Assembly: GCA_910574995.1 (NCBI GenBank)
Contig: CAJTCS010000006.1
Coordinates: 81,979-105,978, forward strand
Source: Oscillospiraceae bacterium
GTDB lineage: Bacteria > Bacillota > Clostridia > Oscillospirales > Acutalibacteraceae
Direction: 5' to 3'
Length of the DNA: 24,000 bases
The translations under genes and the position numbers were made by a program. This document shows, piece by piece, positions 16,057 to 17,343 of this stretch (the first letter of the stretch is position 1; each line of letters starts with the position of its first letter). The notes beneath the pieces are model-generated. The model did no database searches. It saw only the letters and a program-made list of their open reading frames with translations, and was not told where the DNA came from.

Positions 16057-16665
16057 ATGAAAACCTACGGCTATATCCGCGTATCCAGCACAGACCAGAA
16101 CGAGGGCAGGCAGCTTGTGGCGATGAACGCCAAGAAGGTGCCCCGGCAGAACCTCTATATGGACAAGCAGTCCGGCAAGGATTTCCAGCGCCCGCAATAT
16201 AAACGGCTGGTAAAAAAATTAAGGCCCGGCGACCTGCTCTACATACTGAGCATCGACCGCCTGGGCCGCAACTATAAAGATATACAAGAGCAATGGCGGG
16301 TATTAACAAAGGAGAAAGGCATTGACATCTGCGTGTTGGACATGCCGCTGCTGGACACCCGCAACGGCAAGGATTTGATGGGCGCCTTTATTGCCGATTT
16401 AGTCTTGCAAATCCTCTCCTTCGTGGCCGAGAACGAGCGGGCTAACATCCGCAGCCGGCAGGCCCAGGGCATTGCGGCGGCAAAAGCCCGGGGGGTACAT
16501 TTTGGGCGGCGGGAAATAGAAATGCCCGATAATTTTGAGCAAATCGTGAAAGCGTGGGAGTCCGGAAAAATCACCATCCAGGAAGCGCTGGGCCAGTGCG
16601 GCGTGGCTGAAGCCACGTTTTACCGCCGGGTGCGGGACTACAGGCTGATACAGAAAAAAGGTTAG
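16057..16665 (+). CDS. Small serine recombinase (resolvase/invertase family) with C-terminal HTH
   Basis: AAAGGAG lies 8 nt before ATG 16057. [19 protein letters not shown] carries the catalytic Ser motif (Y.R.SS..Q), followed by LSIDRLGRN and E-helix [25 protein letters not shown]. The C-terminal HTH is [21 protein letters not shown]. Confidence 0.9.
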
Positions 16666-16698
16666 TGGCTATCAAAAGGTGTACTTTTTGATAGCCAC
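16665..16698. repeat. Palindromic site (13-bp perfect arms) at the recombinase stop codon; candidate left recombination site and/or terminator
   Basis: GTGGCTATCAAAA (16665-16677), GGTGTACT, TTTTGATAGCCAC (16686-16698), then TTTTTC. The reverse complement of 16665-16692 matches 16807-16834 at 25/28 positions. Confidence 0.6.
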
Positions 16699-16710
16699 TT
16701 TTTCATCTGT

Positions 16711-16739
16711 AGAATACCACATTTTCCCTGAAAATGCAA
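16711..16739 (-). promoter_or_regulatory. Candidate extended -10 promoter inside the IR-bounded segment, currently pointing toward the recombinase gene
   Basis: The minus strand reads TTGCAT (16739-16734), a 17-nt spacer ending in TGg, then TATTCT (16716-16711). A small hairpin (TTGCCG TTA CGGCAA) that reads hairpin plus T-run on the minus strand lies upstream of it. Confidence 0.45.
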
Positions 16740-16806
16740 GAGCTGGAGTATGATTGATGAACTATTTCACAAAAAATTTTTGCCGTTACGGCAAAGGCAG
16801 GGCTGA

Positions 16807-16834
16807 ATCAAAAAGTACACAACTTGATAGCCAC
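16807..16834. repeat. Right copy of the recombinase-adjacent repeat, inverted relative to 16665-16692
   Basis: ATCAAAAAGTACACAACTTGATAGCCAC compared with the reverse complement of the left site, ATCAAAAAGTACACCTTTTGATAGCCAC. The 3 mismatches are clustered. Confidence 0.6.
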
Positions 16835-16856
16835 CCGGATGAAGGAGGTGTTGGCT

Positions 16857-17222
16857 GTGGCGGAGGCTGCGCAGCGCATGGATTTACTTGCAGAATATGA
16901 GGAGCTTTTGCGCTATTGCCCTATGCTCACCACAGACCCGGAAACCGTGCAGGGGCTGGATTTTTACACGCTGCAAGTGCTGTCCACCGCTGCCCGGGGA
17001 AACTGCCGCCAGCGCAAGGAGCTGCAGAAAAAGGGCATCGCCCAGGCCAAGGCCCAGGGAGTGCAGTTTGGCAGGCCCAAGGCCGCTGTGCCAAAGAATT
17101 TCAAGAGAATAGTCGAGGCTTGGCACATGGGCGAGATTTCCCGCCTGGAGGCTATCCGACAGAGCGGCTTGACCTCCGCCACCTTTTACCGCTATTTGAA
17201 AAAGCTGCGGGAACAAGGCTAG
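16857..17222 (+). CDS. Resolvase C-terminal HTH-domain-only protein (recombinase remnant or stand-alone HTH_7-like regulator)
   Basis: RKELQKKGIAQAKAQGVQFGRPKAAVPKNFKRIVEAWHMGEISRLEAIRQSGLTSATFYRYLKKL parallels the recombinase tail [64 protein letters not shown]. There is no catalytic Ser domain. GAAGGAGG at 16841-16848 favours GTG 16857. The ORF-track TTG 16824 lies in the repeat, and ATG 16878 is also possible. Confidence 0.55.
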   Translation: MAEAAQRMDLLAEYEELLRYCPMLTTDPETVQGLDFYTLQVLSTAARGNCRQRKELQKKGIAQAKAQGVQFGRPKAAVPKNFKRIVEAWHMGEISRLEAIRQSGLTSATFYRYLKKLREQG

Positions 17223-17343
17223 TGCTTATGCGCGGGACGTAAAGGCCATGCGCTTTACATAAGCAAATTCGAGAGGAAGGAGACAGATAACTGAACGTTT
17301 ACAACCGAGACCGACCAATTCATTTTAGGAGGTATGAAATCAA

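Follow-up and report, generated by a model that had tools for sequence, protein, structure and literature searches.

The locus studied here raises the question of whether a short stretch of DNA, caught between the gene of a small serine recombinase and the genes that follow it, among them that of a large SLH surface protein, can turn around and thereby place a promoter in front of those genes. It lies in a 24,000-nucleotide (nt) stretch of an Oscillospiraceae bacterium (NCBI GenBank assembly GCA_910574995.1, contig CAJTCS010000006.1, positions 81,979 to 105,978 of the forward strand), which we call the window and whose numbering we use throughout. A first inspection of the letters alone, hereafter the sequence-only reading, had proposed an invertible promoter at this place. 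Its observation proved correct and its interpretation as an invertible promoter is supported by our analysis, and we regard it as very probable that the locus is a phase-variation switch working by site-specific DNA inversion.

The switch is framed by a 28-nt inverted repeat with arms at 16665-16692 and 16807-16834, 114 nt apart, which match at 25 of 28 positions (89% complementary) with the 3 mismatches grouped at 16676-16678. Our repeat search and 200 shuffles of 16640-16860, in which the best 28-nt inverted repeat reached 14-19 matches, agree with the sequence-only reading, which had described two such copies bracketing 114 base pairs (bp). The first base of the left arm is the G of the TAG codon (16663-16665) that closes the recombinase gene, and the arm belongs to a palindrome (16664-16680 / 16683-16699 around a 2-nt centre, with perfect 13-bp arms at 16665-16677 and 16686-16698, then TTTTT). 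The earlier description of this copy as terminator-like holds on both strands, as judged by its scores in either direction and by the predicted folding of the hairpin (-23.0 kcal/mol for the plus-strand and -20.7 kcal/mol for the minus-strand RNA). By their sequence, both repeats contain serine-recombinase crossover sites, each laid out as a 12-bp half-site, a 2-bp core and a second 12-bp half-site, as is the rule for small serine recombinases. The recombinase-proximal site L, 26 bp at 16669-16694, comprises CTATCAAAAGGT (16669-16680), the core GT (16681-16682) and ACTTTTTGATAG (16683-16694); it sits in the wider palindrome 16664-16699, which is flanked by an A-run and a T-run and has the look of a bidirectional terminator, and its half-sites score 18.9 and 18.7 on the family half-site profile (consensus T-R-T-C-A-A-A-A-R-G-T, maximum 18.9). 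The distal site R, 26 bp at 16805-16830, comprises GAATCAAAAAGT (16805-16816), the core AC (16817-16818) and ACAACTTGATAG (16819-16830), with the inner half-site scoring 14.7 and the half-site at 16819-16830 being the weaker match. The cores GT and AC are mutually reverse-complementary, i.e. the sites are inverted; they lie 136 bp apart, centre to centre, and enclose an invertible segment of 134 bp between the core dinucleotides (16683-16816), of which 112-114 bp is unique DNA between the repeats. No strong match to the half-site profile was found in the 24-kb window outside sites L and R, and hence there is no sign of res-like accessory subsites.

Inside the segment, the minus strand carries a predicted sigma-70-type promoter with an extended -10 element at 16711-16739 (-35 TTGCAT, 16739-16734; 17-nt spacer; TG, 16719-16718; -10 TATTCT, 16716-16711), and upstream of it on the same strand a terminator-like hairpin (16795-16779) with a T-run, the match extending to 16769; both elements had been pointed out from the sequence before and can be read there. 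The promoter is kept in diverged relatives, as TTGCAA-17-TGgTATTAT in one (L003) and TTGCAT-17-TGgTATCCT in another (L004). Only after inversion would it face the helix-turn-helix (HTH)-only open reading frame (ORF) and the SLH gene that lie downstream. The earlier claim that it fires back into the recombinase gene stands as far as direction is concerned, but a transcript made from it would meet site L, which is terminator-like on the minus strand too. The window shows the commoner orientation, presumably the OFF state. When the segment is inverted in a model, its hairpin comes to lie on the plus strand directly 3' of the recombinase gene, where we tentatively suggest that transcripts of that gene could be stopped by it before they reach the promoter. 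An Rfam search of 15800-17600 yielded no match above threshold.

The flipped orientation was found in a contig from another metagenome (L114, ENA ERZ14916665), retrieved via an exact look-up of the HTH-ORF protein. Between its recombinase gene and its HTH ORF, this contig carries the modelled inversion of window 16683-16816, save a few single-nucleotide differences, with the promoter facing the HTH ORF and the SLH gene, as the sequence-only reading had anticipated, and with the half-sites swapped as a crossover at the repeat centre predicts. The switches of the window and of L114 are 95% identical over 170 bp, on opposite strands. Compared with three unflipped contigs (L116, L118 and L121), L114 is 98% identical over 3.5-3.8 kb, the 170-bp switch (96.5% identity) being the one part that aligns in reverse orientation. 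The swapped differences between L and R, at 16676-16678 and beyond 16692, delimit the crossover to 16679-16692, including the central GT. Two sequences, GTGGCTATCAAAAGGTGTACTTTTTGATTCAGCCC and AGTGGCTATCAAAAAGTACACAACTTGATAGCCAC, mark the flipped orientation. Exact-protein look-ups with the window recombinase and its 96%, 87% and 83% relatives returned contigs that were all in the window orientation, and a metagenome scan with a 37-nt pattern of the segment gave no match; that collection does not contain the clade of the window, and the flipped copy therefore had to come via the HTH-ORF protein.

A second locus (P0056), whose recombinase is 73% identical to that of the window, was represented by 10 independent assemblies, 7 with the promoter toward the recombinase and 3 flipped; in the latter the flanks are the same, whereas the 112-nt inner segment is reverse-complemented and the outer half-sites have changed places exactly at the centre. 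Both orientations are accordingly present at the same locus in natural populations, at the locus of the window (through L114) and at P0056. In addition, another family member (L048) has an inner segment that is homologous, as its reverse complement, to the one in L023 and L024, with the recombinase genes co-oriented. A flip hinted at by gene calls at a third locus (P0053) was dismissed, the DNA being identical in all eight full contigs; two P0053 contigs end at a homopolymer length difference.

The same architecture recurs across a large family. Among 80 loci in species-representative genomes, about half have a palindromic site right after the recombinase stop and a second site 96-179 bp downstream, and in most of the 80 site L begins a few to ~50 nt from that stop. 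Together with 120 metagenome loci found by the site motif, the genome loci gave 86 distinct two-site switches, in all of which the two core dinucleotides are complementary (GT/AC in 72, AC/GT in 11, and AG/CT, TT/AA and AT/AT in one each). An asymmetric core that co-varies between the two sites is a requirement of serine-recombinase strand exchange for inversion. The spacing of the sites falls into clusters (116-117, 125-129, 135-139, 145-148, 156-160, 166-170, 179 and 186-190 bp) with peaks at 116/126/136/147/157/168/179 bp and a best period of 10.3 bp (R=0.74 over 67 sequence clusters; none of 5000 jitter nulls was as high), and the mean phase of zero at a 10.5-bp period places both sites on the same face of the helix. 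In these switches, too, the promoter is of the sigma-70 type; its spacer measures 17 nt, and its -10, which is often extended, ends 16-18 nt from a site. It lies by the proximal site and toward the recombinase in 67 switches, and in 12-15 by the distal site and toward the genes downstream. In its flipped state the promoter is immediately upstream of a gene start at nearly all family loci. The genes downstream, diverse yet typical in kind, would fit phase variation: they encode SLH, InlB-repeat and SHIRT surface proteins, a sugar transferase, BREX components, Band-7 proteins and others. One switch stands upstream of a BREX phage-defence operon (BrxA, BrxB, BrxC), and four are followed by TnpB/Cas12f-like TNB-domain proteins. 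In one contig (L059) a pair of family sites whose cores are opposite stands downstream of a recombinase, at 941 and 2859 and hence 1.9 kb from each other, and this pair may delimit a larger, gene-carrying invertible segment. About a dozen further contigs, including L029, L050, L068, L022, L028, L058 and L018, stop inside or less than ~100 nt after the proximal site, as is expected from a branch in the assembly graph when orientations are mixed.

These findings bear on the proposal that nothing inverts here, that the repeats are a terminator and its diverged duplicate, and that the flipped contigs are assembly artefacts. Site L does look like a terminator, assemblers can be confused by short inverted repeats and many contigs end at the site. 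The flipped junctions, on the other hand, were seen in four independent assemblies, at two loci, with different assemblers and in different studies, and as the repeats (28-34 nt) are shorter than reads and typical final k-mers, the junctions must exist in the reads; furthermore, the differences between half-sites are exchanged exactly at the centre, and neither the complementarity of the cores in 86 of 86 switches nor the 10.3-bp phasing is explained by a terminator duplicate. We give this proposal practically no credence. The sequence-only reading had named a terminator duplicate or ordinary res subsites as what the repeats might prove to be; both readings were rejected on account of the flipped loci, the core complementarity, the phasing and the lack of extra half-sites.

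As for the enzyme, the gene at 16057-16665 (plus strand) encodes a small serine recombinase of 202 amino acids (aa) with an N-terminal catalytic domain (Pfam PF00239 Resolvase, E=4e-28, residues 4-147) and a C-terminal HTH (weak HTH_28 match, residues 162-196). Its catalytic motifs, YIRVSS with the nucleophile and SIDRLGRN, are intact; a catalytic domain with nucleophile, a C-terminal HTH and a length within 180-210 aa are what defines the small serine recombinases. The earlier assignment to the serine invertases/resolvases can be refined in that the protein is Sin-like and not Hin/Gin-like: the closest solved structure is Sin (2r0q, E=8e-28, residues 4-159), with the gamma-delta and Tn3 resolvases at ~9e-15 and Gin at 3e-13, and Hin, Gin, Cin and Pin are not its closest relatives. 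More than 8000 relatives at about 70-75% identity were found, mainly in Oscillospiraceae and Lachnospiraceae. A promoter-like site upstream of the gene (TTTGCA-16-TACAAT, 16005-16032, plus strand) matches the consensus at 9 of 12 positions, which is weak evidence; the hairpin that follows the preceding gene (15917-15946) lies upstream of it. In a 96%-identical relative (L003, 4783-5439) the recombinase ORF lacks the usual stop and runs through site L to give 218 aa, and since it spans the site, inversion there would alter its C-terminal tail.

From the site architecture, the site abutting the recombinase stop across the family and the intact catalytic motifs, we infer that the adjacent recombinase is the catalyst of the inversion. 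It could be argued instead that the segment inverts but that its neighbour is merely the resolvase of a surrounding mobile element, with another recombinase acting in trans, as Mpi does in Bacteroides. Sin, the closest solved relative, is after all a resolvase, conjugative-element genes stand beside the locus in the window, and the P0056 recombinase adjoins a MobA/MobL relaxase. Moreover, two-site switches of the same consensus occur with no recombinase nearby (L124, 973-1120; L136, 1411-1569; L190, 5091-5249; L229, 1476-1634; L188, 3162-3319); they have 128-139-bp spacing and no recombinase homologue on either side, one example being arranged as DUF1294, switch, and a 915-aa choline-binding/leucine-rich-repeat surface protein. 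These orphan switches are equally explained by the same enzyme family also acting in trans, and some copies are, on this arrangement of genes, likely flipped that way. Two further points tell against a mere resolvase: 1) in most family loci, over 65-100% protein identity, site L abuts the recombinase stop, which is hard to explain without a functional link; and 2) both sites are palindromic, of the crossover type and inverted, with no res-like accessory subsites in the window. We consider catalysis by an outside enzyme at this locus improbable, and retain the adjacent recombinase as the likely agent.

How does such a switch relate to known systems? Hin/hix of Salmonella and Gin, Cin and Pin (of Mu, P1 and e14) likewise have a small serine recombinase beside invertible DNA, with 26-bp inverted sites built of 12-bp half-sites and a 2-bp core, as found here; the family half-site resembles that of hix/gix, which we take to be TTATCAAAAACC, and Hin, too, controls a surface protein by means of a promoter within the segment. 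This general kind, a Hin-like promoter inversion controlling a surface protein, is well known. However, the enzyme here is far closer to Sin than to Gin (8e-28 vs. 3e-13), the segments of the Hin/Gin group measure ~1-4 kb vs. 134 bp, and in the present switch the recombinase gene lies outside the segment and site L doubles as a terminator. To our knowledge, Fis is not known outside the Proteobacteria and hosts of the class Clostridia are without it; in such a lineage a Fis-bound enhancer is not expected. Given the Sin-like enzyme, the Fis-less lineage and a segment shorter by an order of magnitude, the switch falls outside the group of enhancer-dependent invertases.

In sequence and structure the closest family is that of Sin (Tn552/staphylococcal plasmids) and beta (pSM19035), both from Gram-positive hosts. 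Sin and beta use the non-specific bending protein Hbsu/HU and not Fis, and beta can invert as well as delete. Their res/six sites consist of a crossover site and an accessory site of directly repeated half-sites, in contrast to the two palindromic, inverted sites 136 bp apart found here, and their outcome is multimer resolution rather than promoter inversion. With no accessory subsite, inverted sites and an inversion product, the switch is not a res system of the Sin/beta type.

In function, the switch is nearer to Mpi, the serine recombinase that flips short promoter segments of ~170-220 bp ahead of the capsule genes of Bacteroides fragilis and so switches surface structures. Mpi, however, is a single global enzyme with many distant sites and a different repeat motif, whereas the present enzyme normally lies beside its switch, and the segment here is shorter and helically phased in length; the orphan copies, suggesting some action in trans, are a point of likeness. 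In Clostridioides difficile, the cwpV promoter lies outside its switch, which involves terminator formation. The RecV-controlled cwpV and flagellar switches of that species also serve the phase variation of cell-wall and surface proteins through 150-200-bp invertible elements and terminator formation (PMC5386303, PMC7446863). RecV is, unlike the enzyme here, a tyrosine recombinase encoded elsewhere in the genome, and its repeats are unrelated. Mpi and RecV/cwpV are functional analogues with unrelated sites or enzymes. What is distinctive about the present switch is the Sin-like invertase, the phased 96-190-bp segment, the site that doubles as a bidirectional terminator and, in this clade, a switched paralogue of the recombinase devoid of the catalytic domain. 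The family is large, resides in gut Clostridia and is apparently undescribed: a full-text literature search returned no published description of it and the hCom2 inverton supplements were without the site motif, although Jiang et al. 2019 was not covered by this search. Published inverton catalogues, e.g. the Firmicutes_A groups in PMC11892184, may contain family members.

The switched paralogue is the first gene 3' of the switch, an HTH-only ORF of 121 aa at 16857-17222 (plus strand), which begins with GTG 8 nt after GGAGG and is called as a 121-aa gene from GTG 16857 in public contigs. As it retains exactly 121 codons with a ratio of non-synonymous to synonymous divergence (dN/dS) of 0.2-0.3 in relatives whose synonymous divergence (dS) is near 1, the HTH ORF is, by these signs of selection, a real gene. 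Its counterpart in the recombinase is the C-terminal stretch of 84 residues, to which it is 48% identical (residues 116-196, E=2e-21). The shared part runs from the end of helix E through the GRP arm to the HTH; a catalytic domain is absent, and the conserved N-terminus (EYEELLRYCPML), with an invariant EYEEL.RYCP.L motif, is unique to the ORF. It is also rare, with only 13 clusters in a collection of 5.8 billion proteins, all in the window's clade. An AlphaFold model (mean predicted local distance difference test score 81) consists of one long helix that an extended linker joins to a bundle of three helices; Foldseek placed Sin and gamma-delta resolvase on top at E=0.1-0.2, matches which are consistent but not significant. 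As the DNA-binding parts of the recombinase are retained, one may speculate that the paralogue also binds these sites and biases the switch or locks it. Across contigs, the switch and HTH ORF are 95-100% identical (L114 vs. the window, L010 and L116) while the recombinase genes are only 83-90% identical; the order of recombinase, HTH ORF and large SLH protein is kept in relatives, with SLH lengths varying from 849 to 1065 aa. This pattern of conserved switch and HTH ORF, less similar recombinases and variable SLH length points to a mosaic module with a diversifying surface protein.

The presumed phase-variable product is the secreted SLH surface protein of 865 aa (17344-19941, plus strand), in which two domains resembling InlB B-repeats are followed by three SLH domains at the C-terminus (Pfam SLH, E=2e-27; Flg_new_2, E=4e-10). 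Between it and the HTH ORF lies a hairpin at 17224-17266 (plus strand; alignment of six clade members), both stems of which are kept in relatives with coding dS of ~1, with one G-U-compatible change, and 3' of it an invariant purine-rich block, AGAGGAAGGAGAC, at 17272-17284. The caveat of the sequence-only reading, that this hairpin could block read-through, was right as to the presence of the hairpin, which is moreover conserved; lacking a U-run, it does not qualify as a canonical terminator. This lack and a fold no better than shuffles (z=0.39) speak against a terminator at this place, the conservation of the element notwithstanding. A consensus scan of 17223-17343, from the HTH ORF to the SLH gene, gave no promoter-like site; with no such site between them and a hairpin lacking a U-run, the SLH gene is probably co-transcribed with the HTH ORF.

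It is here that a further alternative has to be weighed, namely that inversion is real but that its main output is something other than ON/OFF control of the SLH gene, be it a short antisense RNA over the 3' end of the recombinase gene, with the present orientation as the working one, a plus-strand promoter that maintains expression downstream, or an SLH gene with a promoter of its own. The promoter faces the recombinase in ~80% of the family switches and in ~20 of 21 contigs of the window's clade, a conserved structured element intervenes between HTH ORF and SLH gene, and the window does contain a plus-strand promoter-like match (TTGATA-16-TAGAAT, 16688-16715, 10 of 12 positions), for which the outer half of site L serves as -35. 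Strong OFF bias, however, is usual at phase-variable loci; the flipped promoter is immediately upstream of a gene start throughout nearly all of the family, and the scan just mentioned speaks against an SLH promoter between the two genes. The plus-strand match is not conserved and has the wrong spacing at the P0053 and P0056 loci, and we judged it unlikely to be the actual promoter of the switch. Overall, we hold a main output other than SLH ON/OFF control to be improbable, slightly more so than catalysis by an outside enzyme.

Taking phase variation by inversion as our reading, we propose that recombinase dimers would bind the 26-bp sites L and R, that the sites would synapse across a tight, helically phased DNA loop, and that cutting at the central GT/AC, rotation and religation would leave 16683-16816 inverted. 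In the present, presumably OFF state, the promoter points toward the recombinase, and its transcript, of ~50 nt from a start near 16704, would terminate at site L, whose palindrome would form a hairpin with a U-run on both strands and also end the recombinase mRNA. In the flipped, presumably ON state, the segment hairpin and T-run would lie directly 3' of the recombinase gene and the promoter at 16760-16788 on the plus strand (modelled coordinates); the transcript would pass the hybrid site R, whose hairpin is not followed by a U-run, reach the ribosome-binding site of the HTH ORF and drive the 121-aa paralogue, and the same transcript would probably continue into the 865-aa SLH gene. The roles given here to promoter and terminators, and the joint transcription of the HTH and SLH genes, are those that the sequence suggests.

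Several observations weigh against this reading. Within the window's clade, ~20 contigs are in the window orientation and one is flipped, and we infer flipping in the window's own strain from a locus that is 95-98% identical; at the P0053 locus, eight contigs are all in one orientation. The orphan switches, as noted, make action in trans possible. The small serine invertases known so far depend on an enhancer and act on segments longer than the 134 bp here. The stem of the segment-borne hairpin varies and is poorly conserved among close relatives, and the plus-strand TTGATA-16-TAGAAT match could make the present state leaky. Lastly, covariation of recombinase residues with half-site bases gave no clean signal.

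Drawing these strands together, we put forward a joint reading with considerable reserve, since we think it possible but less likely to be right in all its parts than wrong in some: that the locus belongs to an uncharacterised and very widespread class of mini-invertons in Clostridia, each self-contained, in which a Sin-like enzyme would invert ~96-190 bp without accessory sites or an enhancer, requiring only an integral number of helical turns, a mode of synapsis that would be new for serine recombinases; that the proximal site would double as a bidirectional terminator; and that the paralogue of the window's clade would bind the same sites and lock or bias the switch ON. The mechanistic question is how a tetramer that holds its DNAs on opposite faces could synapse sites on so short a loop, and, as to directionality, what replaces an enhancer or accessory sites as the control. 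A switch family that is defined by sequence would put surface proteins, exopolysaccharide genes and BREX of gut Clostridia, where phase variation has been much less studied than in Bacteroides, under phase variation, and the site consensus together with the 10.3-bp spacing rule makes such switches findable from assemblies without reads. With promoter and insulation built in, a cassette of 170 bp together with its enzyme of 200 aa would also be a compact genetic memory element for Gram-positive anaerobes.

The neighbourhood of the switch comprises further genes of interest. Upstream, at 11349-14291 (plus strand), a 980-aa protein joins an ExoIII-like endonuclease/exonuclease/phosphatase domain to a reverse transcriptase (RT) of the group-II-intron type (RVT_N, RVT_1, GIIM) and a C-terminal DUF7662; its layout recalls non-LTR retroelements or defence-associated RTs, and the region is split into several ORFs in L003. 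Between this fusion and the recombinase, a 478-aa protein (14466-15902, plus strand) has a weak NYN (PIN-like nuclease) domain, and its gene is followed by the hairpin at 15917-15946, which has perfect 13-bp arms. Downstream, from ~20787 on the plus strand, a gene with a SIR2_2 match and faint AAA/STAND-NTPase matches runs off the window end at 24000; the public record calls it as 1162 aa, and it was seen at 10731-12609 of L001. With the RT fusion, the NYN protein and the SIR2_2 gene, the neighbourhood looks like a defence island. The left part of the window, with a DUF3991-Toprim protein and a TraG/VirD4-type coupling protein at 1250-4813, belongs, as these two show, to a conjugative element; near them are Sel1-repeat, BlaR1-type M56 peptidase and Spo0A_C-domain proteins.

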